A stretch of 64,000 nt of DNA. It comes from a virus (taxonomy: Duplodnaviria > Caudoviricetes). Each line of letters begins with the position of its first letter. The stretch's first letter is position 1. The notes under the pieces are model-generated. The model was given only the letters and a program-made list of their open reading frames with translations, searched no databases and had not been told where the DNA came from. Made by a program: the position numbers and the translations under genes. Location: the IMG/VR virus record IMGVR_UViG_3300031992_000019. One strand, written 5' to 3'. Below, in pieces: positions 17,593 to 64,000 of this stretch.

Positions 17593-17719
17593 GGGTTATA
17601 AAGCAGCCGTACTTTCGTATGGTTGGATAGATATGGGAAGTGGTGTTCCCATCGGTGGTTGAATTGAGTACATTGGCGGCATCTGAATCGCCCTACGAAC
17701 ATTTAACTCGGTTAGCCAC
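17593..17719 (+). repeat. Direct repeat copy 1 (at least 127 bp)
   Basis: Identical to 63874-64000. Confidence 0.97.
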
Positions 17720-17826
17720 TCTACAAGTTGGAGAAGTTCCTCCTTATATTGTGGGTTTTGGTCGGGAAAAGCCGCTTCTGCAACAAGTCTTTCTATTTCG
17801 GCATCTATGGTTATCTTGTCTATCAT
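17596..17826 (-). CDS. Hypothetical protein (3' part duplicated at the window end)
   Basis: 76-aa ORF. Confidence 0.65.
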   Translation of the reverse strand: MIDKITIDAEIERLVAEAAFPDQNPQYKEELLQLVEWLTELNVRRAIQMPPMYSIQPPMGTPLPISIQPYESTAAL

Positions 17827-17879
17827 AGCCGTAATTTTTTATTCGCGTTATTTAATACGGGTTATAGTTGTATTGTTAA

Positions 17880-18059
17880 TTATACTATTTCTCTAAAATA
17901 TCGGTCACTTCTTCCGCTTGCGTCCTCACAGGGCATAGGGTCGTTAATTCCAACTTTTTCACAGATTTTCTGCAATGCGCAATAATCGCAAGCGTCTGCA
18001 CCATGCTTATCTGTGGCGAATTCAACCCTCTTCCCAAAGATTTCAATTTCGTTTGCCAT
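17880..18059 (-). CDS. Small Cys-rich hypothetical protein (59 aa)
   Basis: Manual translation MANEIEIFGKRVEF...CDYCALQKIC... Confidence 0.5.
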   Translation of the reverse strand: MANEIEIFGKRVEFATDKHGADACDYCALQKICEKVGINDPMPCEDASGRSDRYFREIV

Positions 18060-18070
18060 AGTCGTATTGT

Positions 18071-18244
18071 TTATACTCGTTTTACATTGTTATCCTTAAT
18101 CCATTTTTCAAGGGATTCATTTGTTCTCTTTCTGCTTTTGTAATCTGGACAATAACTATACGGCTTTGTGAATTTCATAAGCATATAGCAATATCCGTCA
18201 AAATGCTGCCAAAAGCACCTTGTGCAATATCCGTGATTTGCCAT
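18071..18244 (-). CDS. Small Cys-rich hypothetical protein (57 aa)
   Basis: Manual translation MANHGYCTRCFW...YCPDY... Confidence 0.5.
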   Translation of the reverse strand: MANHGYCTRCFWQHFDGYCYMLMKFTKPYSYCPDYKSRKRTNESLEKWIKDNNVKRV

Positions 18245-18432
18245 AGCTTGCTGCTTTAGGGTGCATAACCTTTATATATCCATATAATATCACCGATTTT
18301 CCCAAAAAAACCCAAGTCTTGGTCAACGCGGAACTTCTTTTTTGACAATTTATCTAATGTTACTTTTGTTTTATTATCTTTTGCCATATTATATCACCTT
18401 TAGGGGTCAAATTATTTGGGGTTAGAATTGGT

Positions 18433-18642
18433 CTATGATTTTCGTATCAATGCTGCTGATGATGAAACTGTTTGTCCATCCTTGATAAGGGAGACAGATT
18501 CTATCTCTGGTGACATATTGTATGGGTTAGTTGAAGCATAGTGTTCTTTGTATATACCTATTGCCTCCACAACATCGCTTGCCACTACCAGCCTTCCATT
18601 TATTTGATATACCTTTGTTGTACCTATATTTGCCATAGTCAT
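18433..18642 (-). CDS. Hypothetical protein
   Basis: 69-aa ORF with an AT-rich leader. Confidence 0.55.
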   Translation of the reverse strand: MTMANIGTTKVYQINGRLVVASDVVEAIGIYKEHYASTNPYNMSPEIESVSLIKDGQTVSSSAALIRKS

Positions 18643-18647
18643 AATTG

Positions 18648-19061
18648 TTAAAGTGTGATTTCAATTTCCGAACCACATAGCCTTAATGCTGCTTGGAGTA
18701 TGTGGACATAATGTCTGCAAGGGCTTTGGAAGGTCACCTCTCCATTACTCCAGCCATTGTTCCATCGCTCAATAAGCATTGAATCCTTGAAGCGATATTC
18801 AAGCCATCCATAATTTTCGATGGCATAGGTTGCACTGCTTAAATCAATGATAAATCCGCTTGAACGCATTATATCTTCAGAGATACGAATTGGTTCATAG
18901 CAGTCAAGTCCGCGATATACATCTGATTCGTCGGTCTGCACATAATGCTGCCCATTCGTTGTCATTATGCCAGTCACGCGGTGTGGCTCTTTTAATATTC
19001 TGTTGCCTTCGTCTATCTTTAACAAGACCCAAGCACAAAAAAACAATTCTTGAATATCCAT
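18648..19061 (-). CDS. Phage hypothetical protein
   Basis: 137 aa; EPIRISEDIM and YVHILQAALRLCG segments. Confidence 0.65.
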   Translation of the reverse strand: MDIQELFFCAWVLLKIDEGNRILKEPHRVTGIMTTNGQHYVQTDESDVYRGLDCYEPIRISEDIMRSSGFIIDLSSATYAIENYGWLEYRFKDSMLIERWNNGWSNGEVTFQSPCRHYVHILQAALRLCGSEIEITL

Positions 19062-19094
19062 AGTTTTATTTGTTTTGGTTTCACCCTTGCTGCT

Positions 19095-19499
19095 TTAGGT
19101 AGCTAATTGGTCTGGAGAATCTTGGCTGGATCCGTCGGCCGGGATGGGGTTGATGTCCGCACAGCGCATGCCTTCGTTGAAAGCCTTCTTCGCGTGCTTG
19201 TGGGCGTGGTGAAGGGCGGACTTGATCTCGGTCTCACTGGAACCGGCTGCCGTCATGGCTTCTCTTATCGCCGTGCGAAGGCCTTCCAGGTATTTCTGTC
19301 TCCACTTGCGGCGGGCTCTCTTCGCCATGTCGGCCACTGAGGTCGGGTGGCTGCACGTGACGATCTGCTCCTGCTGGTCTTCTCTGAGGTGGTGCTTGCA
19401 TTCGTTACATACCCACGAACCAACCGTGCAGTCTTTGCCGAACGGACAGGGGGTCAGGAACTCGTTCCCTTCTTCTTTGTATTCGTACTTGATCTTCAT
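19095..19499 (-). CDS. Cys-rich hypothetical protein
   Basis: Likely start MKIKYEY; CPF...VGSWVCNEC. Confidence 0.6.
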   Translation of the reverse strand: MKIKYEYKEEGNEFLTPCPFGKDCTVGSWVCNECKHHLREDQQEQIVTCSHPTSVADMAKRARRKWRQKYLEGLRTAIREAMTAAGSSETEIKSALHHAHKHAKKAFNEGMRCADINPIPADGSSQDSPDQLAT

Positions 19500-19510
19500 G
19501 GCTGCGGGGG

Positions 19511-19864
19511 TTAGAATGGCTCGTTGTCTTCCTGTGTGGGATAAGGTGGCATCTCGGGAGAGGTGGACATCCAGAGCTCGATGAATCGGGGCTCCTCTTC
19601 CCATGTGGGAGGCTCCATCGCTGTGAGCATGAACTTGGGGACAAGAGCAACTTCGCTGCCGTCAGCTCCTTCCCATATTCCCAGCTCGTAGTTGCGGGAA
19701 GGTTTAAGGTCGTAGAGAAACACGTCGCCGTTGCGGTCGGTGGCGATGTAGCCGATGAAGACGGTGGTGGCACGGTTGACACGATGGGCGAGTAGGCCGA
19801 TAACGATGAGGAGGGCGAGTGCCAGGAGGGCGAGGCCGATCCAAAGAATTGCGGTGGGGACCAT
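19511..19864 (-). CDS. Membrane-anchored hypothetical protein
   Basis: N-terminal TM helix followed by a YIATDRNG..FLY...P domain. Confidence 0.6.
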   Translation of the reverse strand: MVPTAILWIGLALLALALLIVIGLLAHRVNRATTVFIGYIATDRNGDVFLYDLKPSRNYELGIWEGADGSEVALVPKFMLTAMEPPTWEEEPRFIELWMSTSPEMPPYPTQEDNEPF

Positions 19865-19918
19865 AGTTTTTTTTGATGTTAAAGGGTTATTATTTGGGTT
19901 TGTTAATAAGTTATGTCG

Positions 19919-22900
19919 TTAGAAGGGGGTCCCGCTGTCGGGGTCGTGATATCCATCGTCGGGTGGCAGGATCGTCTCTGGAGGGAGCGGTGGCATCATG
20001 CCAACCATGGAGGAGTCGGTGAAGCTGCCGCCATCGGTGGGAGACTGAGGAACCTGGAGGGGCGCTGTGCCCTGGATCTCCTCGGGTTCCGGTGCATCGT
20101 CGGCGACACGTTGGCGCTTCTGCTCGAAGTACTGGATGAGGGCGTCGCGGTCGTTGACCAGGATGACCACCTCGACCACTCCGTCGTAGCCTTCCATGCG
20201 GGCGTTGCGGACGTTGTTGAAGCGGACGTTGGGCGATGTCTTTCGGTTGCAGAGTTCCTTGGGGTTGAAGTCGAGGTCGTAGTAGTTGGCGAAGTGACGG
20301 AGCTTCTGCATGAAGGTCTGAGAGCTGAGCGTCTCGCATCCGCGCACCTGACGGGCGAGTTCCTGGATATCGCGGCGGACGACTTCGCAGTTGAGGTGTG
20401 GAGGGATGGCAGGCTGCTCCGGAACCTGCCCGTGGGCTGGAATCTTCTCACGTCCGAAGAAGTAGTCCTTGGCCCAGTCGTGGAAGGGCTTGCCCATGGC
20501 ATCGAGGTCGGCACGCTTCATGATGTTCTGCATCGGTGGCGTGAACTTCGGGCCGAAGATCTCGGAGAGCCGGAGGTAGTCCTGGCAGCAGTCGATGGCG
20601 AAGTTGAAGTCGGCATTCCAGTCGGCCTCGGTGTACTCCTCATCGTGCAGCTCCATGTCGAAGTCGTCGTGGATGTTCCAGCGCTCCTCCCCTGTCTCGG
20701 GCTGTTCGCCGTGGTAGTAGTCGCTCTGGATCTCCGGAAGGATACGCTCCATGGTGGATGGCGAGAAGTCGGGCATGACGTAGTTGGACGAAAGCATGAA
20801 CTTGGGGGTCTCGGATGCGGTCAGCTCGAACGACTCCTTGTTCTTTCGGTTTACGGTCATCGTGCCGGTGATCTGCGAGTAGAGGGAGGTCAGCTTGAAG
20901 TCCTTGCCACAGTCGTCGAAGTAGCAGATGTCGGTGTCGCGGGTCACTCGCTCCCACTGGAACGAGCCGAAGAGGTTCTTCACGTCGCGGCCGTCGAAGC
21001 GGACCACCTTGCGCCCGCATTGGGTGATGAAGTTCGAGATGAACGACTTGCCGGAGCGTCCGTTGCATCGCCCCTCCTCGTCGATCTTGTTGTCGAGGAA
21101 CATCATGGCGACGCTACGGCTGGCCACCTTGCGGCGGTAGAGCATGTAGCCGGTGCCGAAGACCTTGGCGACGTAGGTGTCGATCTGCTCCTGACGCTCG
21201 TGCTCGAAGAGGGCGGGTCCCTGCACGGTGAAGCGGTTGGCGGCTCGGTAGGCCTTGGCACCTTCGGGGTCGTTGTCCCATCGTGTCTGCAGCTCTTCAC
21301 GCCAGTAGAGGCGGGACGAGTTGAGGTAGACGCCCTGGACGTTGCTCTGAGGCCATGGCTGGCCGTCGCGCTCCTTGTAATTAACCTGCAGGTTAACCTT
21401 GCGGTGGCCGTCGGGAGTGGTGACGACCTCGATGTCGTGCGAACGGCGAAGGCGACGGAAGGGGTGCTTGATGATCTTGTCGGCCCAGACGTAGTAGCCA
21501 GAGGGATGGCTGTCCAGGCCACGGACCTCGACCTTGTCCTTCGAGACCTCGACGAGGCAGTTCGAGAAGAAGAAGATCTGAGACGTGGGGGTGCAATCGA
21601 CCATGTTGAACTTCCGGATGGAGATGCCCTGCACGTCGGGGTCCTTGAGTCGCTTGACCTTGTTACGGATGGGCTTGGGGCAATAGTTGGCGGGATCCTG
21701 GCACCAGCGATTGAGGAAGGCAAGCATCTGGGTGGTGGAGCTCTCCTCGATGATGTAGCCGTGGACCTTGACCACCTGGTCGGGATCGACCGTGCCGTCG
21801 TCGAAGCGGCAGTAGCCGTTGAGTTCGAGGAAGTAGTGCAGCTGCTCCATGTCGAGCTCGTACTTGATACCCTTCTTCTCGTCTTCCTTCTCCTGCCAGA
21901 AGCGGGAGGGCAGCGCCTTGTCCAGGAGCCCCTCGAACCAGCCCCTGACAGGGTGCAGCTCCATGGCGTCGCGGAGGTCCTTCGACATCTTGTGGCGGTC
22001 GTTGATGCCTTCCATACGTCCCCAGTGGAGCCACGCGGTCTTCACCTTCGGGTACTGCAGGGCGAGAGCAGCACCGCGGTCGCGGCCTGTGCCGTCGATG
22101 TCGGGGATGGAGTAGATGGTCTCGGCGATGGCCTCCAGCTGCTTCATCTCGGACGGCTTGATGTCGATGGTCTCGCTGTTGAACCACACGGGGTGGTAGC
22201 CCATGTAGGCAGCCACGAGGGAGTCACGCTCGCCGCAGCAGATGAGCAGCTCGGGGAGCTTGACGGTGTCGGGCTCCACATCCTTGGAACATCCGCGACG
22301 CATGGCCTGGAGTGCATCCTTGGCTTCGTCGAGGCCGTTGATGTAGCTCTCCGGCTTGATGCCCGTGGGATAGTACTGGAACTTCGGCTCACGGGTCTCC
22401 TTCCCATCCTTTGTGACCCACGAGGCCGGCTGGGCCTTGTAGATCTTGACGAACGGCTGGCCTTCGGCCGTGCGGCATTCGCGGTAGAAGACCATGTAGT
22501 CGCGCGAACAGGGCGAAATGACGGTGGTACACGTTCCATCAGCCTTGGGGTGACCCGTTGTGGCTATGGATTCGCACGAATGCCAGTGCAGGGCCTTGAC
22601 CGTCTCCTGAGCCTTCTGGAGGCCGGCTGTGGTGTTGACCATGGGGCCGAAGAGGAACAGGAGCTCGTCGGTGGTCATCTCGGGCCGTGTGCCGAACTTG
22701 ATGGAGCCGGGGGCCTCGTCCTTCTGGGCGGGTCGGAACACCTTCTTCGGGCCGGTGTCGCGCGGGCCGTCGGCGATGATGTAGCCCATGTAGCGGCAGA
22801 GGGCCTTGAGGTTGTCGTAGTAGGTGTCGGTGCGGTCGCTTAGATTCTGCTCACGGATGAACAGCGCCCACCATGAGAGGCCGTTCTCGCCTCCGTGATC

Positions 22901-23098
22901 CTTGAAGTACCACTCACCGTTCTGCCCGCGGTAGAGGTAGCAGGAGGCGTTCTTGTCGTCGTAGAACGGCGAACGGAACGGCTTGGAGTTCTTGTGCGTC
23001 TGGCAGTAGGAGGCCACGTCCTGCGAGAGCCCGAGGAGCTTGACCAGAACGTCGAGGCCGTTGCCTGAGCGTTGGAGTATATCTTCTTTGGAGACCAT
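19919..23098 (-). CDS. DNA primase-helicase
   Basis: N-terminal SPFYDDKNAS...FKDHG region, TOPRIM-like CGERD/PDIDGTG, C-terminal P-loop NGRSGKS and FDD. Confidence 0.8.
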   Translation of the reverse strand: MVSKEDILQRSGNGLDVLVKLLGLSQDVASYCQTHKNSKPFRSPFYDDKNASCYLYRGQNGEWYFKDHGGENGLSWWALFIREQNLSDRTDTYYDNLKALCRYMGYIIADGPRDTGPKKVFRPAQKDEAPGSIKFGTRPEMTTDELLFLFGPMVNTTAGLQKAQETVKALHWHSCESIATTGHPKADGTCTTVISPCSRDYMVFYRECRTAEGQPFVKIYKAQPASWVTKDGKETREPKFQYYPTGIKPESYINGLDEAKDALQAMRRGCSKDVEPDTVKLPELLICCGERDSLVAAYMGYHPVWFNSETIDIKPSEMKQLEAIAETIYSIPDIDGTGRDRGAALALQYPKVKTAWLHWGRMEGINDRHKMSKDLRDAMELHPVRGWFEGLLDKALPSRFWQEKEDEKKGIKYELDMEQLHYFLELNGYCRFDDGTVDPDQVVKVHGYIIEESSTTQMLAFLNRWCQDPANYCPKPIRNKVKRLKDPDVQGISIRKFNMVDCTPTSQIFFFSNCLVEVSKDKVEVRGLDSHPSGYYVWADKIIKHPFRRLRRSHDIEVVTTPDGHRKVNLQVNYKERDGQPWPQSNVQGVYLNSSRLYWREELQTRWDNDPEGAKAYRAANRFTVQGPALFEHERQEQIDTYVAKVFGTGYMLYRRKVASRSVAMMFLDNKIDEEGRCNGRSGKSFISNFITQCGRKVVRFDGRDVKNLFGSFQWERVTRDTDICYFDDCGKDFKLTSLYSQITGTMTVNRKNKESFELTASETPKFMLSSNYVMPDFSPSTMERILPEIQSDYYHGEQPETGEERWNIHDDFDMELHDEEYTEADWNADFNFAIDCCQDYLRLSEIFGPKFTPPMQNIMKRADLDAMGKPFHDWAKDYFFGREKIPAHGQVPEQPAIPPHLNCEVVRRDIQELARQVRGCETLSSQTFMQKLRHFANYYDLDFNPKELCNRKTSPNVRFNNVRNARMEGYDGVVEVVILVNDRDALIQYFEQKRQRVADDAPEPEEIQGTAPLQVPQSPTDGGSFTDSSMVGMMPPLPPETILPPDDGYHDPDSGTPF

Positions 23099-23135
23099 TT
23101 CTTGCTGTAGGTAATGTTACGGATTTACGGGCGTG

Positions 23136-23741
23136 TCAGTTCCAGGGGAGGTCGTCGATGGGCCCCTGCTGATTGAGGCGTGAGACCATCGGGTTGCGCT
23201 TGCGTTCGCGGCCTCTCCACTCGTAGAACGAGGTGATGAAGGCATCGGCAGCGTGGTGGGCGCATGGCATGTAGATGGCATCGTCGAGGCGCTCCATGCT
23301 CCCGGTCTGGAACTGGCAGAACCCGAGCGACTCGCTCAGCTCGACCACGGCGATGCCCTGGGCCTTGGCGAAGGCCACCTCGGCCAGACAGCCGCGCGAC
23401 GACTCCCATCCGTCGAGAACCACGACGAGGTTGGCCTGGCTGATGACGTGCAGATCTTCGAGCAGGTAATCGACATCGGAGAGGCGGCGGGGCGTGGCGT
23501 AGGCGGGGTTGAACATCGCGGCACGCCTGGCCTCGGCCTTGACAGCTTCATTGAGACGGATGGCAGCGTCGAGCGGAGACATGACGTTGATGGCACAGTT
23601 GCCGCCACCGTATTGCTCGGCCCATAGCTTGCGGAAGCCTGCGTTGAGCACTTCCTGGATGTAGTTCTTGGCACGTTCGGCGCGGTCGCGGGTGTCGGCC
23701 TCAGAGTGGCCGTGCATCGGGAGGGATATGTAGATGATCAT
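23136..23741 (-). CDS. DUF4406-like (nucleoside deoxyribosyltransferase-like fold) protein
   Basis: IYISLPMHG and LDGWESSRGCLAE motifs; likely start 23741. Confidence 0.7.
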   Translation of the reverse strand: MIIYISLPMHGHSEADTRDRAERAKNYIQEVLNAGFRKLWAEQYGGGNCAINVMSPLDAAIRLNEAVKAEARRAAMFNPAYATPRRLSDVDYLLEDLHVISQANLVVVLDGWESSRGCLAEVAFAKAQGIAVVELSESLGFCQFQTGSMERLDDAIYMPCAHHAADAFITSFYEWRGRERKRNPMVSRLNQQGPIDDLPWN

Positions 23742-23780
23742 GATGAAAGTCGGGTGTTTGGGTGTCTGCGGATGAAGATC

Positions 23781-23946
23781 GACGAGGCGAGGAGCGGAGC
23801 GAGGGTTTTGAAACCCCTGGATTTGCAATTTTTGAAAAATGAGCTTTGCGTAAAAAAAATGATTTCTATATGTATTTATATAGGTACAAAACAATGGCAA
23901 ATGTTTGTGCCTTGATTCACGATTTCGCTCCGCTCCTCCAATCGTC
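23781..23946. repeat. 14-bp perfect inverted repeat (extendable to ~22 bp) enclosing an AT-rich core
   Basis: GAGGAGCGGAGCGA at 23789-23802 / TCGCTCCGCTCCTC at 23925-23938. Confidence 0.85.
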
Positions 23947-24096
23947 CCTGTCATTTCTTCATGGGCAAACGGGTGTTAAAGGGTTAAACAATAGGGTTAA
24001 CTATTCGCTCAAATAAAACACTTAGGGTCGGGATAAAAGCCGCCGCCTGGCTCACGCCTGTCGGCGGTGAAATACTTTATAATGATTCAGGATATG

Positions 24097-24603
24097 CTAT
24101 GTGTTGAACGAGCCGCTACGACCACGCTCGAAGAAGTCGATGATATCCTTGTAGGGCTCGAGGTGCATGCGGCGCTGCACGACGTTGATGATGCCAAGCT
24201 CCTCGAGGTGGATGGTGCTGTTGTCGATGCCGTTGGCGTCGCGGGCTTCGATGAACGAGCTGACCGACATCCTGGAGAGCTGCTCGGTGAACATGTCGCG
24301 GATGAAGGTGAGCTGGTCGTCGGAGAAGAGCTGCTCGGTGTCGTACTCGAGGGAGATGTGGTACTGGATGACAGCGTGGCCACCGTCGAACTCGTCGTCG
24401 GCCTGCATCTCCTTGCGGAACGACTTGAGGCTTGGCTCGTCGATGGTCTGACGCCATCCGCGGGCGAGGTGGCCGTTCTTCTCGGGGTTGAACCACTCCC
24501 AGAGCTGGGCGAGGTTCTCGAAGGTCTTGACGTCGGCAGCCTCGACGATGGGCTTGCCCACGTTGGGCACCAGGCGCTTGATGCGGAAAACAAAAAGATT
24601 CAT
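24097..24603 (-). CDS. Hypothetical protein
   Basis: Likely start MNLFVF; codon usage fits phage B. Confidence 0.6.
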   Translation of the reverse strand: MNLFVFRIKRLVPNVGKPIVEAADVKTFENLAQLWEWFNPEKNGHLARGWRQTIDEPSLKSFRKEMQADDEFDGGHAVIQYHISLEYDTEQLFSDDQLTFIRDMFTEQLSRMSVSSFIEARDANGIDNSTIHLEELGIINVVQRRMHLEPYKDIIDFFERGRSGSFNT

Positions 24604-24818
24604 GGGGTTGATGGTTTTGTGTACTTGGTGTGGTATTCCCTGGTTAAAAATACATAAGTGTCCGGACGATAGCGGAAGTGAGTGCAGCAGCTCTTCTTCG
24701 GCATTGTTTGAAAATGTAGCGTGCAATACACCACGCCATGGCCGGACGTCGGGGCCGAATGCTTGCAGTGCTGGCAGCGCATCCGTCGGATCCACTCGAA
24801 CTCATTGGCCGTCGGCAT
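24600..24818 (-). CDS. Small Cys/His-rich protein
   Basis: CQHCKH...YC...CC. Confidence 0.5.
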   Translation of the reverse strand: MPTANEFEWIRRMRCQHCKHSAPTSGHGVVYCTLHFQTMPKKSCCTHFRYRPDTYVFLTREYHTKYTKPSTP

Positions 24819-25212
24819 TGGGGGACATCTCCTTCTCCTTGGCCAGGATGCGGCGCTTCGTGGCAAGCTCCTGCATGAAGCCCTCGATCATGTCCATGTA
24901 CTGCTGTTCACTCTCGGGGCCGAAGATTTCCTCGATCCAGTGGCCGACGGAGGCGATCATCATCGAGCAGACCTCCTTGTTGCGTGTCATTATTCCGGCG
25001 ATCATCTGGATGACCTGGCCAACTTTCTCATGGTCGGGACAGGAACAGGCCACGCTGACGGCCTTGCCATCCTGTGGAGGCTCTGAACCGAAGAGGACCA
25101 GCAGGTGGTCGGGGTAGCATTCATCGGTGGTCTCAGCGAACTGACGGCAGGCCGTGATGAAGAACGACGGCTCAGTCGGCTTTGCCTTCTCGGCTTTCTT
25201 CTTTCTACTCAT
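24802..25212 (-). CDS. Hypothetical protein
   Basis: Likely start MSRKKK, coupled to the upstream ORF. Confidence 0.6.
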   Translation of the reverse strand: MSRKKKAEKAKPTEPSFFITACRQFAETTDECYPDHLLVLFGSEPPQDGKAVSVACSCPDHEKVGQVIQMIAGIMTRNKEVCSMMIASVGHWIEEIFGPESEQQYMDMIEGFMQELATKRRILAKEKEMSPNADGQ

Positions 25213-25502
25213 AGTCTTTGCATTTTGAATGTTATGGGTTCTTGTTGTAGTCCGTGGTGGATGCAGTAGTGGCGGTAGGAGTTGGCCAGCCGGATGACGA
25301 GGGGCCGCTCGTCGCATCGGCACTGCCACCAGGGGTAGGATAGGATCTCGTCGGCCGACATCTCACAGCCCCACCATTGGGAGCGATGGGCCTTGAGGAA
25401 GTCGAGCAGCTCGGATCGGTGGCGGGCGATGGCCGGGCGGTCGCTCCATCGGACGATGTAGGTCTCAACATACGCCTTGAGAGTTATGTCCACCGTTTTC
25501 AT
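25209..25502 (-). CDS. Hypothetical protein
   Basis: 97-aa ORF. Confidence 0.55.
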   Translation of the reverse strand: MKTVDITLKAYVETYIVRWSDRPAIARHRSELLDFLKAHRSQWWGCEMSADEILSYPWWQCRCDERPLVIRLANSYRHYCIHHGLQQEPITFKMQRL

Positions 25503-25629
25503 AGTGTTTATGGCCTACGACGATACAGAGGGCGAGGGAACCGAGGCCAAGCCAGAACGTGGCGTTCCAGCAGAGGGCCACGAGCGAGGCGACGAGCCAG
25601 GCGAGGAGGAGGAAGGGTGTGCGGTTCAT
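25465..25629 (-). CDS. Small two-TM membrane protein (54 aa)
   Basis: Manual translation MNRTPFLLLAWLVASLVALCWNATFWLGLGSLALCIVVG... Confidence 0.5.
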   Translation of the reverse strand: MNRTPFLLLAWLVASLVALCWNATFWLGLGSLALCIVVGHKHYENGGHNSQGVC

Positions 25630-25757
25630 AGCAGGTAGTCGTCGCCTTCGTACATGTTTCCGAGTTCGCTGGTCGGGTCAATCCACACTGCAATGTGAAG
25701 GAGACCGAGGACTATGATAAGCAGTCCCAGGCAGAGCCATTCTCTAATTTTTTTCAT
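25626..25757 (-). CDS. Small single-TM protein (43 aa)
   Basis: Manual translation MKKIREWLCLGLLIIVLGLLHIAVW...; ATGA-coupled to the next ORF. Confidence 0.5.
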   Translation of the reverse strand: MKKIREWLCLGLLIIVLGLLHIAVWIDPTSELGNMYEGDDYLL

Positions 25758-25981
25758 AGATCTAAATTTTTTTTAAGGGTTGATATTTGGGTTTGTTTAG
25801 TTTCACCTTAATCCCGACAGGCCTCGGTCCTCCCCGCAATTTTGCAAAATAACCAAAATTCGACGATTGCGTGTTAATAATAGGGGTTAACTTGGGAGGG
25901 CCTTGCCCGTCTCCGTCTTACTTCATAGGCCGTGGGGTTTTGGGTTGATAATTTTGGGTTAAAACACTATTTGGCACCAAG

Positions 25982-26128
25982 TGGTGCAGCCGTGGCGTGA
26001 GATTGTCCTGCTTGTGACCGTCTGGTGCAGCCGTGGCGTGAGATTGTCCTGCTTCGTACCGAGGAGAGCAGCACCCATCGTGAGATCGTACTACTTCGTA
26101 CCGAGTGGAGCAATCTTGCCGCAAGATT
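25982..26128. repeat. Degenerate ~41-bp tandem repeat array
   Basis: TGGTGCAGCCGTGGCGTGAGATTGTCCTGCTT exact at 25982 and 26023, followed by diverged units. Confidence 0.8.
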
Positions 26129-26595
26129 CAGGCACTCGAACGCTGGGAACCGAAGCACAGCGTGAGGAAGGCCTCCGAGAACCGGGTGGCAGCATATCGG
26201 GCCGTGTCTGCGTCGCGGAAGGCGAGGGCGATGGGATATTGTCCCTGCATCAGACCTTGGCCATCTACGAGGGGCGAACGGTCGGGATAGACGCGGACGA
26301 TGGCGTGATGATAGATTCGCCCACACTGGCACTCGATGGGCCAGTTGGCCTTGTCGTGAGGTGCGAGGTGGCCGTACTCGGTGTCGCTCAGCACATCGAA
26401 CCACACAAACCAGCGGATCTCCTGGGTGGCGTGGCTTGGCTTCCATCCGTCGTTCAGCGCCTCGACTATGTAGCGGAGGGCGATGAAGGCGCGGACATCA
26501 TCGGGCAGGCCTTGCGTCTGGGCCTTGTACTGGTCGATGGTCACTCCACAGATGCGGAGGGCATCGTCGAGGGTACGGATATCTTCCTTTTTCAT
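26128..26595 (-). CDS. Bacteroidota-phage-type hypothetical protein
   Basis: IRTLDDAL...EALNDGWKP...WF...LAF...A.YAATRF pattern. Confidence 0.7.
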   Translation of the reverse strand: MKKEDIRTLDDALRICGVTIDQYKAQTQGLPDDVRAFIALRYIVEALNDGWKPSHATQEIRWFVWFDVLSDTEYGHLAPHDKANWPIECQCGRIYHHAIVRVYPDRSPLVDGQGLMQGQYPIALAFRDADTARYAATRFSEAFLTLCFGSQRSSA

Positions 26596-26924
26596 AGCTC
26601 GTCGAAATTGATCTTTGTCTGCGATGGCGGGTCGATGACCTCCTCACGTGCTCCGAACTTCGCCTCCTCTCCCATCTCGTTGATGTACTCGTCGGGGGTG
26701 AGGATTCGGCCGTCGGTGGTGAGGATGTCCTGCATGTCGTCATCGACTTCGGTGGCTGTGGTCTCACAGCTGTCCACCTCTGGACCGTCGAAGTCGGAGT
26801 CGTCGATCAGGAAGTCGTAGATGTGCTTGTTGGCAAGCTCCAAGGCCTGCTCAGGGCTGTCGGCCTCGACGTGGATGTAAGCGGTCTTTATTACCGACAC
26901 TTCGTAGATGTTGTTTGTTCTCAT
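26592..26924 (-). CDS. Acidic hypothetical protein
   Basis: VEADSPEQALELA motif. Confidence 0.65.
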   Translation of the reverse strand: MRTNNIYEVSVIKTAYIHVEADSPEQALELANKHIYDFLIDDSDFDGPEVDSCETTATEVDDDMQDILTTDGRILTPDEYINEMGEEAKFGAREEVIDPPSQTKINFDEL

Positions 26925-27051
26925 ATATTGGGGGAATTTAAGTCTTGTAAAAACCCCTTTCTGTCTCCCGACTGTAAGGGGAAAAATGTCTGCTTATGAA
27001 ATTACATTTCTTATATGGATTACAGCATTGAAATGGATTTGTCAAAGAAAA

Positions 27052-27181: not shown

Positions 27182-27186
27182 GTGGG

Positions 27187-27561: not shown

Positions 27562-27957
27562 ATGACTACCATCAAAGAAAGAATTTATCGGATTGTCGAA
27601 GCTGAGCACCTAACTCCTCACGCTTTTGAGGTGCGCTGCAACCTCACAAATGGGTATATTAAGAACATCCGAGAGGAGATAGGTTCCAAAAAGTTGGAAC
27701 TTATCTTAAAGAGTTTCCCACAAGTCTCCCCAGCCTGGTTACTCCTGGGAGAGGGCGAAATGCTGCGAAAAGATGACAACTGCAACTGTCAGACAGCCCA
27801 CGGCGTGGACATCTCCCAGACGATGATCAACCAGCCCCCGGACATCGCCACCCTCATCGAGCAGCTCAGAGCGAAGGACGAGCAGATCCGCCACCTGCAG
27901 AACCAGGCAGCATCCCTCACCGAGATGCTCCACCACGTCATGTGCAGCCCTAAATAG
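27562..27957 (+). CDS. Phage repressor (XRE-type HTH)
   Basis: IKERI...F...C.L.NGY...VSPAWLLLGEGEML plus a C-terminal coiled coil. Confidence 0.85.
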   Translation: MTTIKERIYRIVEAEHLTPHAFEVRCNLTNGYIKNIREEIGSKKLELILKSFPQVSPAWLLLGEGEMLRKDDNCNCQTAHGVDISQTMINQPPDIATLIEQLRAKDEQIRHLQNQAASLTEMLHHVMCSPK

Positions 27958-28066
27958 TGGAAACTCTTCGCCAAAAATCGCCAAAAAGGGTGGAAACTCT
28001 TCGCCAAAAAATCGCCAAAAAGGGTGGAAACTCTTCGCCAAAAAGCTCGCCAAATTCTCGCCAAAA
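27957..28066 (+). repeat. Three 33-34-bp tandem repeats rich in TCGCCAAA
   Basis: GTGGAAACTCTTCGCCAAAAA starts at 27957, 27990 and 28024. Confidence 0.9.
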
Positions 28067-28279
28067 TCCCATCACCAACCAATCCCCCACCCCATCCCTA
28101 TGACCTCCAAACCCACATCAAAGAAGGGGCCCTCGACTTGCGAGACCCCCTCCAGCTCCACCATCGTGGCAGATAATGCCACGAATGACAGAGAGTTACA
28201 AGAAGGGCGAGAAAAAAATCTCGCCAAAAGTTCGACAACATCTTTCCCGAATTTTTCTGAGATTCGGGAAAGAAAAAAA

Positions 28280-29470
28280 ATGACCCAATTCCAACCATCA
28301 CACGTGCCGGCTGTTCTGAGGTGTAACAGCTCTTGGTACATCGAGTATTACTACACTAACAGTCACGGCGACCTGGTGAGGGTTCGCCATAACCTTAACC
28401 GAATACTTAAGCGTTTCCGGAAAGTGGCCGACAGGAAGGCCTACGCACAGCAGGAGGTGGCGCGGATCAATCTGAAACTCTCTCAGGGGTGGACGCCTGA
28501 AGCTGAGGAGCGGATGGCCGCGAACAGCCTGGCAGGCACGCCATGGGCCGACGTGAAGGCGCACTATCTGGAATACCTGGGGAAACAGGAAAAGCCGTAC
28601 AAGATGTCGCACTCTACGGCCTTGACTTATCGTTCGACGTTCGGGATCTTCTGCTCATTTGTTGAGACGGTCCCCACATTATTATATATATATATGATAG
28701 ACGCGGACGTGGTGAGGCGGTTCCTGGACTGGTCGATGGCCGTTAGGAAGGTGAGCGAAACGACGCGCGACAACTACAGGAGATGGCTGCACTCGTTCTG
28801 CTCGTGGCTGGTGGACTGCGGATATCTGCAGGAGAACCCGGTGGAAAAGGTGAAGCCCCTCACGGGTGGCCACCACACGAAGCAGCAGGGGCGGGACGCG
28901 ATGAAGTCGAAGTACATCTCGGAGAGGGACAGGGTGAGGATGTTCCGATGGATGGATGAGAATGACCCGTGGCTGAAGCTGGCCGTCCTGCTGTGCCATG
29001 AGTGCTTCCTCCGGACGAAGGAGGTGGCACAGCTTCGGGTGGAAAATATCCGGCTGCACGACTCGCTGATATTCGTGCCAGCGGCCATCTCGAAGAACAA
29101 GACGGACGCATTCGTGACGCTGACGGATGAGGTGGCGCGGCTCATGATCGACCTGGGCGTGCTCGAAAAGCCCGGGCACTGGTATCTGTTCTCACGGGAT
29201 CTGCGCCCGGCGGAGAGGGAAAAGCCGACGAGAGGTGACGAGATACGGGAGCGATGGAGGGCGATGTGTGACGCGCTGGGGATGCCGAAGACCACCTGGT
29301 ACTACCACATGAAGCACACGGGCATCACGGACATGGCCGCGTCGATAACGCCCAGACAGGTGCAGCTTCAGGCAAGACACCACTCGATCGAGATGACGGA
29401 GCGGTACATGCAGAAGACGGAGCCGAAGGCGAACGAGGACATCAGGAGATGGAAGGGGGCGAAGAGGTAG
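28280..29470 (+). CDS. int: Tyrosine recombinase / integrase
   Basis: FLRTKE (R), SKNK (K), YHMKHT, ARHHS (H), TERY (Y); ORF open from 28100, but the ATG at 28280 after an A-run is preferred. Confidence 0.9.
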   Translation: MTQFQPSHVPAVLRCNSSWYIEYYYTNSHGDLVRVRHNLNRILKRFRKVADRKAYAQQEVARINLKLSQGWTPEAEERMAANSLAGTPWADVKAHYLEYLGKQEKPYKMSHSTALTYRSTFGIFCSFVETVPTLLYIYMIDADVVRRFLDWSMAVRKVSETTRDNYRRWLHSFCSWLVDCGYLQENPVEKVKPLTGGHHTKQQGRDAMKSKYISERDRVRMFRWMDENDPWLKLAVLLCHECFLRTKEVAQLRVENIRLHDSLIFVPAAISKNKTDAFVTLTDEVARLMIDLGVLEKPGHWYLFSRDLRPAEREKPTRGDEIRERWRAMCDALGMPKTTWYYHMKHTGITDMAASITPRQVQLQARHHSIEMTERYMQKTEPKANEDIRRWKGAKR

Positions 29471-35255: not shown

Positions 35256-35256
35256 T

Positions 35257-35835: not shown

Positions 35836-35847
35836 GTTGTTTGGGTT

Positions 35848-36162: not shown

Positions 36163-36174
36163 GGGGAGGAGGTG

Positions 36175-47694: not shown

Positions 47695-47697
47695 TGA

Positions 47698-49166: not shown

Positions 49167-49172
49167 GGTGCG

Positions 49173-53569: not shown

Positions 53570-55321
53570 TCAGAGGCCGGACGATGGGTCGGACTGGGAG
53601 GTGAGGGAGTCGAACCACTGGTCAACAGCTCCGGAGGAGGAGCTTCCAGAGGTGGAGACAGTGCGATGAGCGACACTGAGCCAATCCTTTCGCATGAGGA
53701 GGTACTTGAAGGCGTCCGAGAAGTTGGTCGAGAGCATCGGGAGTTTCTTGAGATCAAGTTTCTCTGTCTTCTTCACTTTCCGGACTATCTTGGAGTCGCC
53801 CTGATAGGTGACTTCGGCCTTGGCCAGCTCGATGGACGATATCATCTCCCGGCAGTTGAGTGCATCGACCTGCAGGGCGGGGAGTGCCGGGCAGGTCCCT
53901 CCGAGGAGGGTGATCATGAAGGTGTACTCGGCATTTTGCCGGATGATGCCTTGTTTCCTCGACTTCAGATTGACGATCCATCCGGTGCGGTGGCCGTCGG
54001 CATCCTTCTCGACGGCATCCTTGAACTCGGAAGCCTGGTCTTTTTTCTGCTTGGCGTAATTATTACCGGCTCGGTCGTAGTAGAAGTCGAGCACCTTGTT
54101 GCCGTGACCTGCGAAGAACAGGAGGAACTGGTCGGCCAGCTGTCGGATGGACTGGGGTGCCAGCACGTACATCGACTTGTGGATGCGGTAGAGCGACGGG
54201 TTGTCGTACTGGCCGATAACCAGGGAGGTCTGATTGCCGAAGTCCATGCCGGCTTCGATCGGTCGATGCTGGTGGAGGTAGCGCAACTGGGACGAATTGG
54301 TAGCTGCCACACCATCGGCCGTGCCGTCGTAGTACTTGTGGGTCTCTGACCACAGCGTGTAGAAGCGAAGCTCTCGCTTCAGGCCCGGGCGCATACCGAA
54401 GACCGACTTCATTGCCTCGTGCATCTCGAGCGTACCTGAGAGGAGGCGACGGATGTACTCGACCGTCAGGATCTGGACGTTGACCAGGGAGGAGGCATTG
54501 AAGAAGAACGTCTGCCCCTTGCGCATCTTCCAGAGGCCTGCCTGCAGTCGGTCGATGCGTTCCTGCTGGCGACGGATGCGAAGCTGTGAAGAGTTGGCGC
54601 GTCGCTTTATGGACTCCATCTCGAGCAGTTCCTCGTTGAGGGCACAGGCCACGCGGGCGATGTTGTAGATGCGGTCGGCATCCATCTCGTCGGCATAACG
54701 GAAGAACCAGTCGAACTCTCCCTCGGTGATATCAGGCATGTCGGTGGTGATGGTGATCCCGAGGAACAGCACCGAGTTGCCGTAGGCCAGCGCATCGCCT
54801 CGAAGGATGGGGAAGGCACGGTTGACCTTTTGCTCCTTGTCGTACTTGGCCTCGTCCATGAAGAGGTGGACCACAGACTTGCCTGCGAGGAGCGAGGGAT
54901 TGTCCAGGGAACCGAGGAAGATGACGCAGCCGTTGGGGAACGATATCGCGTTGCGGTAGTCATCGACGATGACCGAGCAGCGACGGCGCCATGACTCGGG
55001 AGGGCGCTTGTACTTGATATAGTCGCGGCCCTCTGCCCAACCGAGGAGACCCCAGCCCTTCTGGACGGCCGGCATGATGTTGTCCTGAAGGTTGACGTAG
55101 GTGTTCGAGACGAAGGCGAAGGCTGCACCCGGCATGTCATAGACACAGCGGTAGGAACGTAGGGCCTGGATGACCGTTGACTTGGCCAGACCACGGCCAC
55201 CTATGACGACCATGACCGTCGTGCCTATCCAGTCGGTGAGGACCTGCAGGATGTGGCAGTAGCGGACATCCGTCTCGGGCGTTTTAGCTGCCCTCTTGAT
55301 CGCCGAAGTTCTTCTGGTCAT
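53570..55321 (-). CDS. terL: Terminase large subunit
   Basis: Walker A variant GGRGLAKS, Walker B LFMDE, nuclease AGMDFG. Confidence 0.85.
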   Translation of the reverse strand: MTRRTSAIKRAAKTPETDVRYCHILQVLTDWIGTTVMVVIGGRGLAKSTVIQALRSYRCVYDMPGAAFAFVSNTYVNLQDNIMPAVQKGWGLLGWAEGRDYIKYKRPPESWRRRCSVIVDDYRNAISFPNGCVIFLGSLDNPSLLAGKSVVHLFMDEAKYDKEQKVNRAFPILRGDALAYGNSVLFLGITITTDMPDITEGEFDWFFRYADEMDADRIYNIARVACALNEELLEMESIKRRANSSQLRIRRQQERIDRLQAGLWKMRKGQTFFFNASSLVNVQILTVEYIRRLLSGTLEMHEAMKSVFGMRPGLKRELRFYTLWSETHKYYDGTADGVAATNSSQLRYLHQHRPIEAGMDFGNQTSLVIGQYDNPSLYRIHKSMYVLAPQSIRQLADQFLLFFAGHGNKVLDFYYDRAGNNYAKQKKDQASEFKDAVEKDADGHRTGWIVNLKSRKQGIIRQNAEYTFMITLLGGTCPALPALQVDALNCREMISSIELAKAEVTYQGDSKIVRKVKKTEKLDLKKLPMLSTNFSDAFKYLLMRKDWLSVAHRTVSTSGSSSSGAVDQWFDSLTSQSDPSSGL

Positions 55322-60270: not shown

Positions 60271-61134
60271 TCATCGGCGGGTCTGCTGGGCGATGCCTCG
60301 GGCGAAGACCCAGAGGATGGCATCGTCGAGCGTGCCGTACTGGTCAACATAGCCAAGGTCGATTGCCTCCTGGCCCGAAAATAGCTTTCCGCGATAAAGC
60401 TCTAAATCGGGGTCGTAAGGCACGCCTATCTGCTGTGCCACATCTTGGGCGAACATCAGATGCACCTGTTGCAGTGATGCCTTGATGGGTGCATCGTCGC
60501 CCTGTTCCAGCTGACGGGAGAGGTAGTTCTTGAGGTCAGCTGAGTCGGGATAGATGTCGCGGGCGACGATTCCGAGTTTCTCGAAGAGCCCGGCGAGGCT
60601 CAGATATCTCGTCATCACGCCCACACTGCCCACTTCGCACAGAGGCGATGCCAGGAAGATGTGCTGCGCAGCTGTACCCAACCAGAAGTGGGCCGAAGCC
60701 ATCGTGCCAGCGACGTAGGTGGCGATGGGCTTGGGGTACTCACGGATGGCACGGGCAGCGAGATCGACGTGAGCAATCATGCCGCCGGGGCCATTGATCC
60801 AGAGAACCACGCCCACGATGCGGGGATTGTCGGCAGCCAGACGGAGGAAACGCTCGAGGGCGTAGGTGTCCCACGAATAGAGCGGACCCTCTGAGGCGAT
60901 GACTGCGACGCTGTTGGACGGGAGGTTGACGTCTTCGAGATCCCAACGGGTGACGACGTTCGGCCCTGCCCCTTGCGTGACAGCGTAGGCCATCACCTTG
61001 CTCGCATCCAGTTGACGCTCCACGGCCTCCAGATTGCCGGCCTTGAGAGCAGGCAAGATAGAGAGCAGCAGCGAGGCGTAATCCGCATCGTTGATGCTCC
61101 ATCGTTCGGTGAGGATGGATTGAATCTTGTTCAT
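60271..61134 (-). CDS. S49 (SppA/ClpP-fold) prohead protease
   Basis: INGPGG, MASAHFWLG and VGSVGV motifs. Confidence 0.9.
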   Translation of the reverse strand: MNKIQSILTERWSINDADYASLLLSILPALKAGNLEAVERQLDASKVMAYAVTQGAGPNVVTRWDLEDVNLPSNSVAVIASEGPLYSWDTYALERFLRLAADNPRIVGVVLWINGPGGMIAHVDLAARAIREYPKPIATYVAGTMASAHFWLGTAAQHIFLASPLCEVGSVGVMTRYLSLAGLFEKLGIVARDIYPDSADLKNYLSRQLEQGDDAPIKASLQQVHLMFAQDVAQQIGVPYDPDLELYRGKLFSGQEAIDLGYVDQYGTLDDAILWVFARGIAQQTRR

Positions 61135-61195: not shown

Positions 61196-61196
61196 T

Positions 61197-61698: not shown

Positions 61699-61797
61699 AA
61701 ACGGGAAATTTTGGTTAAAAAATGCAGTCGGAAGATATTCGGAGGATTTCGGACAAAACGGGGGTTTTGTTGCAGTGAATTTTTGCAAAAAAAATGC

Positions 61798-62316
61798 CTA
61801 TTTCTTGAAGGTTCGCTTCAGTTGTCGGCGCTGCTTTACATAATCGCGTGTTTTCTTAAGATGGCGGGAGCGGTCCTGCCAACGTGTGAAGGCCTTGCAC
61901 AAAGTGTCGGGAGAGACGGAGAGGCTGTAGATGTCGATGAAGTCCTCGACGGCATCCTGAAGGGGGAGGCCGTAGTATCGGTAGCGATACCAGTAGTCAC
62001 CAAGATCGGTGAGCAGCTCATCCTCCATCGTCCGCTCGATGCCCGGGCGCTTGTGGCCACCCGACACCTTCTCTGGAGGAATCCAGTTCCAGGCATTGGT
62101 GTCGCGCTTCTCAGGGAAGTCGGTGGAGCAGGGAACCAGGAACTCGAAGTTGCCCTTATCGACAGGCACGTTGGACGGCCGACGACGGAGAGAGTTGAGG
62201 ATCTTGACGCGGACGAACGTCGAGAGAGGGAAGCGAACGGTCTGGAGTTCTTCACTCCAATATTTGCGCCGGAAATACTCGGCAATGTGGTCTTTTATCT
62301 GTATTCTGGTGGTCAT
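61798..62316 (-). CDS. Putative transcription regulator (late-activator candidate)
   Basis: Basic, C-terminal HTH-like segment (AVEDFIDIYSL...TLCKAFTRW); upstream of the late operon; function inferred. Confidence 0.45.
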   Translation of the reverse strand: MTTRIQIKDHIAEYFRRKYWSEELQTVRFPLSTFVRVKILNSLRRRPSNVPVDKGNFEFLVPCSTDFPEKRDTNAWNWIPPEKVSGGHKRPGIERTMEDELLTDLGDYWYRYRYYGLPLQDAVEDFIDIYSLSVSPDTLCKAFTRWQDRSRHLKKTRDYVKQRRQLKRTFKK

Positions 62317-62340
62317 GGCAGCCTAATTTGGTTTGAACGA

Positions 62341-62390
62341 TGCAAAGATACGAAATTTTGTGCAACAAAACAAATTTTTGTGCAACAAAA
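62341..62390 (-). promoter_or_regulatory. Promoter overlapped by two palindromic operator-like repeats
   Basis: TTTG-N20-TATCTTTGCA; TTTTGTGCAACAAAA at 62356 and 62376. Confidence 0.65.
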
Positions 62391-62820
62391 TGCGAAAAAT
62401 CGGCCGTTTTTCGGGTATCCTGGCACCGATTGCAATTTTAAACAAAAAATTTTTGTGTGAGTTGAGTCTATTTTTGAAAAAAAATTGTAACATACCCACT
62501 TAAAAAAATAACATGCTAAAACATAATAACTTAATAACTAAAATCGGCCTTTTCCGGGGACTTTCTGCCGAAGTCGAATTGTAACACCTCCCCTTCTTGT
62601 TATTCTTTTTCTTTAAATGTTATTTTTAAAAATAACAAAAAAAAACTCTTATATATAGAGAGTTAGACGCTCAAATCCTGCCATGTTACAAAGTTATTGC
62701 GTTTTTACACTATTATATAAAAAAAATGGGGGAGGGAAAAACGAGCGGAACCTGGCGGTTCGGAGGCCGTTTGCGCAACCGAATTTGTTAACATTGGATT
62801 ATGTTAAGTTGATAGGGCAC

Positions 62821-62868
62821 AAAAAAATCCGCTCAGACGGGCGAAAGTTCGCGGATCTGAGCGGATTT
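62821..62868 (-). terminator. Terminator at the end of the early operon
   Basis: AAATCCGCTCAGA/TCTGAGCGGATTT stem with a T-run. Confidence 0.65.
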
Positions 62869-62903
62869 GAGGCAGCCAAGCTCGACTGCGGCTGGGGCGA
62901 TGG

Positions 62904-63848
62904 TCAGTACTTCAGATTGGTCGGCACACGGGCGTCCTTGTTATACAGCTTTGCCAGGATCTCACAGGTGGCCTTGACGCTGCCGAGGGGATAGATGTAG
63001 ACCGGATAGGTCATGGCCTTGCGGAAGAGGCGGGCAGGATCGAAGGTGTCGGGGTTCTTCTGTACGAGAGTGAGCCAGGCTCGGCACCATGCGGGCGAAC
63101 GAAGGATATCCTTCGAGGGGTCGATAGCGTTGGGAATCTTCGCCCAGTCCATCAGGCGGTCGAGCGTCTTGGTGCAGCCCTCGAAGTCGATGGCCTCAAG
63201 CTGGCCACGGGCGATGGTCTTGATGTTTGCACGACCTGCGACACCTCCGAAGGCACACTGGTCGATGATAGCCTTGGAGAGGCATGGATAGTTGACGTAG
63301 AGCTGCTGCAGGAGTTCGTAGGGTTCACGGCCTTCGGTGCTGTACGACTGGATGAAGTCGGCCTTGGTCCAGTTCTTGGAGTCATTGTTGTAGAGTCGCA
63401 TCTCTGTGGGGCCGTAGTGGGGCTTCTCGATGTAGAGGATGGGGAGGCCGAGGTAGCGTCTGGCAAAGAACCGGTTCTGGCCGTCGACGATCTCCATGGC
63501 CTCGTTGACGATGATGGGCGACATCAGGTCGGCCTGTGCCATGGATTCCACCAGACGCTTCCAGTGGTCCACGTCACGGTTCAATCCGGGGACGAGTCGG
63601 AAGGCGTTGTAGTCGTAGGTCTGCCAGACGACATCGACATTGATGGCGTTCCATTTGGCCGGTTTTGAGTGATCAATCTCGTCCCATGGCGTTCCATCAG
63701 CGTGCTCGAGACAGTTCTGCAGCTGTTGTTCGGTCATTCGTCCGGATTCGACGGCCTCCTGGAAGAGGCGACGGACAGTGGTCTGATGCGCCATGACGGC
63801 GGGTGACAGTTCGGGCGTTTTAGCCTGGTTTGTTTTCTTCGTGCTCAT
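62904..63848 (-). CDS. ParB/Srx-domain protein
   Basis: NR.VD...SPIIVNEAMEIVDGQNRF motif. Confidence 0.75.
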   Translation of the reverse strand: MSTKKTNQAKTPELSPAVMAHQTTVRRLFQEAVESGRMTEQQLQNCLEHADGTPWDEIDHSKPAKWNAINVDVVWQTYDYNAFRLVPGLNRDVDHWKRLVESMAQADLMSPIIVNEAMEIVDGQNRFFARRYLGLPILYIEKPHYGPTEMRLYNNDSKNWTKADFIQSYSTEGREPYELLQQLYVNYPCLSKAIIDQCAFGGVAGRANIKTIARGQLEAIDFEGCTKTLDRLMDWAKIPNAIDPSKDILRSPAWCRAWLTLVQKNPDTFDPARLFRKAMTYPVYIYPLGSVKATCEILAKLYNKDARVPTNLKY

Positions 63849-63873
63849 TGTTGTTGGGGTTTATGAAGTTATT

Positions 63874-64000
63874 GGGTTATAAAGCAGCCGTACTTTCGTA
63901 TGGTTGGATAGATATGGGAAGTGGTGTTCCCATCGGTGGTTGAATTGAGTACATTGGCGGCATCTGAATCGCCCTACGAACATTTAACTCGGTTAGCCAC
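63874..64000 (+). repeat. Direct repeat copy 2 (runs off the window); encodes the 3' end of a second copy of the 17596-17826 gene
   Basis: Identical to 17593-17719; stop codon at 63877-63879. Confidence 0.97.

Follow-up and report, generated by a model that had tools for sequence, protein, structure and literature searches.

Two phages, one shared segment and the end of a contig

The stretch of DNA analyzed here (64,000 nt, hereafter the window; IMG/VR virus record IMGVR_UViG_3300031992_000019) carries the genes of two phages, a large rumen phage that we call A and a temperate phage that we call B, together with a segment, R, whose 672 bp (17593-18264) are exact in both of them (Table 1). An earlier sequence-only reading had pictured B as a whole phage nested in an unrelated one, and the observations behind that picture are confirmed. 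It had noted that 17593-17719 recurs at 63874-64000 (at least 127 bp, 46,281 bp apart), beginning 3 bp past the stop of the gene at 17596-17826; the match is indeed 127 nt long with a spacing of 46,281 nt, extends to 131 nt if one mismatch is tolerated, continues up to the final base of the window (64000), and starts 3 nt past the stop codon (17596-17598) of the minus-strand 76-aa gene P0001, the true shared segment being the 672 bp of R. The two copies do enclose a full second set of virion, replication and lysogeny genes with a higher guanine-plus-cytosine (GC) content (0.57, vs. 0.50 in A), as judged by PHROG matches, and the two phages do share identical DNA in the form of an AT-rich early cassette. 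Outside R, no blastn or tblastx similarity was found between A and B; GenBank phages gave no megablast match to A or to B, and searches of Pfam, PHROGs and the ESM Atlas assigned none of the three small genes of R to a family.

Table 1. Features of the window, with the unitig depths of run X1 in the last four rows (aa, amino acids)
Feature	Positions	Strand	Basis or remark
A-left, right-hand 17.6 kb of the long arm of phage A (~119.3 kb in the full contig)	1-17592	-	PHROG and Pfam matches; depth 16-17; GC 0.50
A tape measure, open at window start	2-5440	-	followed by tail genes
A major capsid	8346-9431	-	
A GATase	11387-11935	-	
A amidoligase	12048-12965	-	
A AAA_23/AAA_21 ATPase	16224-17015	-	
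A 130-aa gene	17017-17409	-	
A 54-aa zinc-ribbon-like gene	17425-17589	-	
R, full copy	17593-18264	-	GC 0.40; genes of 57 aa (18071-18244), 59 aa (17880-18059) and 76 aa (17596-17826)
Remainder of AT-rich insert in B slot	18265-19108	-	genes of 43 aa (18256-18387), 69 aa (18433-18642) and 137 aa (18648-19061)
Junction element AATTAGCTACCTAAAGCAGCAAG opening the insert	19086-19108	-	
Core of temperate phage B	19109-63873	-	GC 0.57; depth 47-49; PHROG matches; B-only 45,891-nt contig
B primase-like gene	19919-23098	-	
B tyrosine integrase	28100-29470	+	phrog_1 at 6e-34; Pfam Phage_integrase on identical gene
attP core CCCCTCCAGCTCCAC, 15 nt, = 3' end of host tmRNA gene	28147-28161	+	alignment of L010 (attL), L012 (empty attB, RUG465) and window
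B tail fibers	32622-38895		
B tape measure	43005-46694		
B endolysin	47810-48394		
B portal-like gene	50135-51511		
B large terminase	53570-55321		
B S49 protease	60271-61134		
B ParB-like gene	62904-63848		
R, second copy, first 127 nt only	63874-64000	-	k-mer overlap at contig end; identity to 17593-17719
9-mer TAAAGCAGC	17599-17607	+	
9-mer TAAAGCAGC	63880-63888	+	
9-mer TAAAGCAGC	18250-18258	-	
9-mer TAAAGCAGC	19089-19097	-	
9-mer TAAAGCAGC	61830-61838	-	
Depth, A	9000-17622		16-17
Depth, B	18395-27000		47.3-49.5
Depth, R	17593-17685		93.6
Depth, R	17656-18086		70.9

Exact protein look-ups place the capsid and ATPase of A, the genes of R, and the ParB-like, primase and terminase genes of B on one contig of 165,745 nt from the Joint Genome Institute (JGI/IMG). 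The window is the final 64 kb of that contig, and the two end at the same base: a sibling window has an offset of 37,745, which equals 165,745 - 128,000, so that the window analyzed here is anchored at the contig end. The length of the contig is accounted for by 119,337 nt of A-left, 672 nt of R, 45,609 nt unique to B, and 127 nt. The sequence-only reading had asked whether phage A resumes past 64000; it does not do so in this contig, which ends there, 127 nt into R. R is complete (672 bp) in its first copy, and the second stops at 127 nt with the contig itself; no phage A DNA follows it, and the 165,745-nt contig lacks P0002, a gene that should follow the second R were A to resume and whose longest contig is one of 75,326 nt. 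The JGI metagenome workflow runs metaSPAdes with k = 33, 55, 77, 99 and 127 (bioRxiv 10.1101/2020.09.30.320929). The terminal overlap of 127 nt is the largest k of that workflow, which means that the contig halts exactly one k-mer after re-entering sequence that had already been used, and such a halt is the signature of a loop-closing path in a de Bruijn graph. The nested picture depends on one single passage, from A-left through R into B.

The borders of R were derived from the arithmetic of MEGAHIT contigs and from the junctions in two further contigs, L002 (JGI sample 3300024342) and L003 (Logan SRR7634052). The contigs are those of ERZ27257202, which we took as a MEGAHIT k141 assembly; its sibling assemblies in the European Nucleotide Archive, ERZ27280724 and ERZ931843, use contig names of the form k141_ and k127_. 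Its B contig measures 45,891 nt, which is 45,609 nt (window 18265-63873) plus 2 x 141, and the ParB-like gene begins there at base 167, with 25 nt of B and 141 nt of repeat upstream. The genes of A-left recur on an A-only contig of 119,442 nt that ends 141 nt inside R, its ATPase gene beginning at base 719 (577 nt of A and 141 nt of repeat). A third contig of 39,649 nt, which we call X, has P0002 (136 aa) as the last gene listed and appears, from that gene list and not from a view of the contig end itself, to end at the border of R. In L002, the C terminus of P0002 abuts this other border of R directly. The 39.6-kb arm that ends in P0002 is probably the other side of phage A, and we infer that X is the native neighbor of A; the genome of phage A would measure ~160 kb if this arm belongs to it. 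In both L002 and L003, 18264..17593 is joined directly to 63873..63100 (the flank we call B-left, B-right being the one that starts at 18265), with no mismatch within R in L002 and three in L003, and L003 reads B-left-R without A. We also considered that A might natively run on into 18265 and beyond and rejected it, because the repeat would then be longer, and the arithmetic of the B contig and an unbroken 47x unitig (18395-26011) set the merge at 18264|18265. The exact patterns of R and X were found in none of the IMG/VR or GTDB genomes.

Read depth was taken from the probable source run, X1, as Logan unitigs and k=31 contigs. All sampled words of 12593-22592 are present in two runs from a single sheep gut metagenome, and one of these two runs shares its 6,328-nt and 7,617-nt Logan contigs with SRR9006730. 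Carrier and insert do not have equal copy numbers in X1, with A at ~16x and B at ~47x; because B is about three times more abundant than A, most copies of B are certainly not within A. The depth of R, 71-94, is close to that of A and B together (plus that of a third phage, C, described below). A loose end at 17589 in X1 equals B-left, and the junction that closes the B circle is therefore present in this run; the same B-B junction occurs in two other data sets. MEGAHIT, in turn, left every arm unjoined at R. The sequence-only reading had looked to B-B junctions and differing coverage as the marks of a chimera, and both the junction and a roughly threefold gap in depth were found, which answers that expectation in part.

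The path through R

Based on these results, we consider it likely that the assembler joined two distinct phages of a single sheep rumen or gut sample across a recently exchanged cassette, and that the 165,745-nt contig is thus a chimera. The sequence-only reading had offered either a cointegrate or an assembler looping through a repeat; the loop is the part we favor, and the nested phage announced in its title is disfavored, since such nesting is most likely not a real feature of this DNA and the link from A-left to B-right would not exist on one physical molecule. In the de Bruijn graph, R would be a single edge, entered from X and from B-right and left toward A-left and B-left; with separate genomes, these flanks would pair as X-R-A-left, which would be phage A, and as B-right-R-B-left, which would be the B circle. 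The path taken by metaSPAdes would have led from A-left into R, on to B-right, around the loop of B, and to R again, where it would have stopped with an overlap of 127 nt, equal to k; a length of 672 bp is too great for reads and ordinary inserts to span. What is expected of such a chimera was found in three respects, namely a terminal overlap equal to k, unequal depths with a repeat close to their sum, and a second assembler breaking at the borders of the repeat. According to the metaSPAdes paper, "long inter-species repeats" are passed, where read pairs do not suffice, with the help of a coverage rule, which drops only those extensions that are at least 2-fold below the depth of the path itself (PMC5411777).

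Several points weigh against this explanation. At an unresolved repeat metaSPAdes should halt, and the coverage rule leaves unexplained why a 16x path was extended into the 47x edge of B; it may be that read pairs truly link A-left to B-right. L002, a contig of 1,636 nt, reads X-R-B-left over all 672 bp of R, and this is the reciprocal junction that a crossover would give. Depth shows that the contig is heterogeneous, yet it leaves the pairing of the flanks unsettled, since separate genomes and a cointegrate in all copies of A both predict a depth of R equal to A + B. Finally, the evidence comes from short-read assemblies, with the source run as k=31 contigs, and the reads behind ERZ27257202 may be the same ones assembled anew, which would make this assembly independent as to assembler but not as to sample. 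As for L002, it ends in a fold-back of 60 nt (1577-1636 repeats, in inverted orientation, the 60 nt just before it, which correspond to window 63100-63159), and an artefact of this kind lessens the trust that can be placed in its path through R.

The best of the other explanations is that real recombinants exist in part of the population, formed by a single crossover at R between A and a circular or integrated B in the same Prevotellaceae cell, although we regard it as unlikely. Such a crossover would give the joints A-left-R-B-right and X-R-B-left, the assembler would have followed genuine linking reads, and the products would be intermediates of replication or recombination and not the form in which A is packaged. 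It finds support in that both reciprocal joints have been assembled, one in this contig and one in L002, which is from another JGI assembly (both of them short-read across a 672-bp repeat), and in the failure of the coverage rule alone to account for the extension that was chosen. In addition, R, being 100% identical in A and B, is a good substrate for recombination, which is plausible in one cell, and RecT is encoded by a C-like contig and by distant phages that share only a P0002 homolog (L004 and L005). Against it stand the 3-fold higher abundance of B, the stop of the contig at the re-entry into R with A never resuming, the four arms that MEGAHIT left unjoined, the shortness and the fold-back of L002, which comes from another short-read assembly and may itself be chimeric, and the lack of any R-spanning read among the k=31 contigs. 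A common host for the two phages, which had also been proposed from the sequence, remains plausible, but only the B-type phages are tied to Prevotellaceae.

Much less probable is that L002 represents a strain of B with a longer captured A-type block that includes P0002 upstream of R; the joint X-R-B-left would then be native to that variant and uninformative about a cointegrate, and this would be compatible with a chimeric origin of the 165,745-nt contig. The slot of B in which R lies is hypervariable among B-type phages, and the insert of B is already a patchwork of A-family cassettes, both of which would suit such a variant; however, L002 matches R at 100% and shows a single mismatch to B-left over 774 nt, and hence seems to come from the B strain of this sample, in which the slot continues into 18265 and onward at depth 47, and L002 includes no more than 143 nt of X. 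Least probable of all, and very much so, is a stable nested element in which every A carries a whole B by Campbell-type homologous recombination at R and propagates as a genome of ~205 kb: the path A-left-R-B of the contig agrees with it, and the depth of R fits it as well as it fits separate genomes, but at least two thirds of B must be free (47x vs. 16x), the contig has neither a second full R nor A DNA after B, the relatives of B exist as 45-48-kb genomes or as tmRNA prophages, and 46 kb of extra DNA (~29%) on a genome of ~160 kb is unlikely to fit the capsid of A, given the limits of phage packaging.

Phage B, its accessory slot and the A-type cassettes in it

The circle of phage B measures 46,281 bp and is made up of 17593-19108 and the core at 19109-63873. 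Its relatives take two forms, contigs of 45-48 kb (L007, L008 and L011) and a prophage in a bacterial contig of 187,673 nt (L006 and L010), and three of them (L006, L007 and L008) show 90-94% nucleotide identity to B on both sides of the slot. In the relatives, nothing but unrelated small genes, 1.1-2.5 kb in all, separates the primase side from the ParB side, and no A-type phage intervenes; homology to the window stops at 19085-19143 or at 19861 on the primase side and restarts at 63862-63864 on the ParB side. The interval between primase and ParB is a hypervariable accessory slot, and the closure of the B circle across R is the native order.

With regard to what fills this slot, relatives of A are informative. 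In one of them (L001; Ga0247611_10000558, 47466-50285), an AAA ATPase 60% identical to that of A lies downstream of homologs of P0001 and of the 43-aa gene. A third phage, C, also a relative of A, is seen in the source run through a junction of 18418 to 17593 at depth 26.6, and is represented by L001 and by a 17.5-kb contig of run X5 as well; on the minus strand its order is X, 18264..18052, 1.6 kb of other genes (one of them with a Sequestin domain), 17743..17593, and 18418..18256. The R-like genes of L001 and of the X5 contig have P0002 upstream of them and an AAA_23 gene downstream. The early region is a shuffled array of cassettes. More distant loci with P0002 (L004, L005 and L092) contained no homologs of R or of the early genes of A, and for this reason they are uninformative on the native order of A. 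We also asked whether R could be a widespread mobile element, present by itself in the many runs that contain 7-18% of the query, and this was rejected: X3-X5 gave A-like and B-like relatives with ~95% identity, and among them only X5 had pieces of R, in the rearranged order of C.

The compositional break in the window falls at about 19108-19129 and not at 17593. GC is 0.40 in R and 0.39 in 18265-19142, against 0.44 in the adjacent early region of A and 0.57 in B. The words GATC and CCGG are absent from 1-19128 and occur at 311 sites in 19129-63742 (~3.5 of each per kb); about 7 such sites would be expected in 17593-19108, where none was found (chance ~7e-4), and there are likewise none in L001, which suggests a strong avoidance of restriction sites in the A family. 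From 18265 onward the insert runs into B without a break at depth 47 (unitig 18395-26011), and its 43-aa gene (18256-18387) recurs in L001 with 95% identity. Given the missing GATC and CCGG sites, the low GC, the homologs in L001, and P0002 upstream in C-type contigs, the 1.5 kb at 17593-19108 read as A-family DNA sitting in the hypervariable slot of B, which has the primase operon on one side and the ParB-like gene on the other. Because the leftmost 672 bp of this insert are still identical to the co-resident A, the transfer would be very recent, and we infer that B acquired the block in a step that went, most simply, from A-type phages to B.

The starts of two cassettes, at 18264 and 19108, have a common element, (AATTAGC..)CCTAAAGCAGCAAG, that overlaps the TAA stop of the preceding gene, and the 9-mer TAAAGCAGC occurs five times in the window vs. 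0.33 expected, the far end of R bearing it inverted. Both would fit short conserved junction or leader sequences for the swapping of cassettes, for which they are candidates. R was also considered as a transposon or a miniature inverted-repeat transposable element and rejected, as it has no transposase and its 9-nt inverted end motif recurs at other cassette starts; TAAAGCAGC at the ends of R fits a leader or junction element better than transposon ends. In the context of A, an 8-bp inverted repeat, CTGCTTTA-N21-TAAAGCAG (17565-17607, minus strand), has the border of R in its loop; it includes the start codon of the zinc-ribbon-like 54-aa gene at 17425-17589 and may be a hairpin for translational control.

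Phage B has an integration site of its own. A B-type prophage directly adjoins the gene for transfer-messenger RNA (tmRNA), and its bacterial flank shows 96-97% nucleotide identity to Prevotellaceae RUG465, where the MMPL query protein is 100% identical, and up to 98.7% to metagenome-assembled genomes (MAGs) of Bacteroidales from sheep omasum; the tmRNA site is empty in RUG465 and in these MAGs. The core CCCCTCCAGCTCCAC is common to attB, attL and the window, in which attP is intact with phage DNA on both arms. This is the permutation of an excised circle, as the sequence-only reading had gathered from the internal position of the integrase gene. The core lies just 5' of the start of the integrase open reading frame (ORF) or within it: the 456-aa ORF crosses the core, and the ORF of the integrated relative has 397 aa. 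Just upstream of the core are four direct repeats of 34 nt (27940-28063), two of them identical, which are probably arm-type binding sites of the integrase. By these alignments, B-type phages use their own tyrosine integrase and the bacterial tmRNA site of rumen Prevotellaceae, and there is no sign of any phage genome as a target of B-type integration; the host of the B-type prophage is a rumen lineage of Prevotellaceae or Bacteroidales. In L010 (1-9884; ERZ27280724 k141_219085) and L012, the prophage locus lies between the tmRNA gene and a lipid cluster of the aryl-polyene type, with genes for a ketosynthase, an acyl carrier protein, ApeP-like and ApeI-like proteins, MMPL and LolA. Elsewhere in B, a 41-nt tandem duplication (88% identity) is found at 25971-26052, and two similar 43-nt stretches at gene starts (19862-19904 and 25755-25797; CATAG..AAGGGTT.ATATTTGGGTTTGTT) are perhaps a shared promoter or leader of this phage.

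Significance and comparison with known systems

If the contig is indeed a chimera, it should be read as ~119 kb from phage A joined to the whole of a separate temperate phage, B, of 46.3 kb, and not as one phage of 165 kb. Calls of genome size, gene content, host and lifestyle are all affected, as the integrase, attP and the part rich in GATC and CCGG belong to B, which can now be delimited as a complete genome of 46,281 bp. The finding of an identical three-gene cassette in unrelated phages that occur together points to a very recent exchange, a modest but real result, and shows a B-type hypervariable accessory slot filled with early-gene cassettes of A-type phages. The shared cassette also offers a candidate link between phage A and the Prevotellaceae host range of B-type phages. 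There is a small chance that A and B really recombine at the fresh 672-bp cassette and that cointegrates or reciprocal recombinants are abundant enough to have steered two independent short-read assemblies; if that were true, the contig would be a natural snapshot of the homologous-recombination step that creates phage mosaics, here between a large phage and a temperate one.

Chimeric contigs induced by intergenomic repeats in de Bruijn-graph metagenome assembly (PMC5411777) resemble this one in that two genomes of unequal abundance have an exact repeat longer than the reads, across which the contig passes from one to the other, in that the end overlap at loop closure is the largest k (127), and in that a second assembler breaks at the repeat. 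Campbell-type cointegrates are also formed by homologous recombination, for example when an int-defective lambda inserts at the homology of a cryptic lambdoid prophage. In such a cointegrate, a circular phage would be expected to lie inside another replicon between direct copies of the shared sequence, and its integrase and attP would be interior and play no part; in the contig, by contrast, what stands for the second copy is no more than the 127-nt overlap left by the assembler, phage A does not continue after it, and the depths differ 3-fold.

Temperate phages of Bacteroidales that integrate at tmRNA (ssrA) are the closest counterpart of phage B, which has a tyrosine integrase beside attP, a 15-nt core equal to the 3' end of the tmRNA gene, and a 90%-identical relative integrated there in a Prevotellaceae contig; nothing important sets it apart from them, and B is an ordinary member of this kind save for the A-derived insert in its slot. 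That insert, in turn, resembles the small moron or early cassettes that unrelated phages exchange at gene borders in ordinary phage mosaicism, since three whole small genes, in a block of 672 bp, are identical in a large phage and an unrelated temperate one, the slot is hypervariable, the composition of the block differs from that of its new carrier, and its borders lie at gene ends with the recurring TAAAGCAGC. What distinguishes it from other cases of mosaicism is the identity of 100% and the presence of donor-type and recipient phages in the same sample, and these two features together argue for a very recent exchange.

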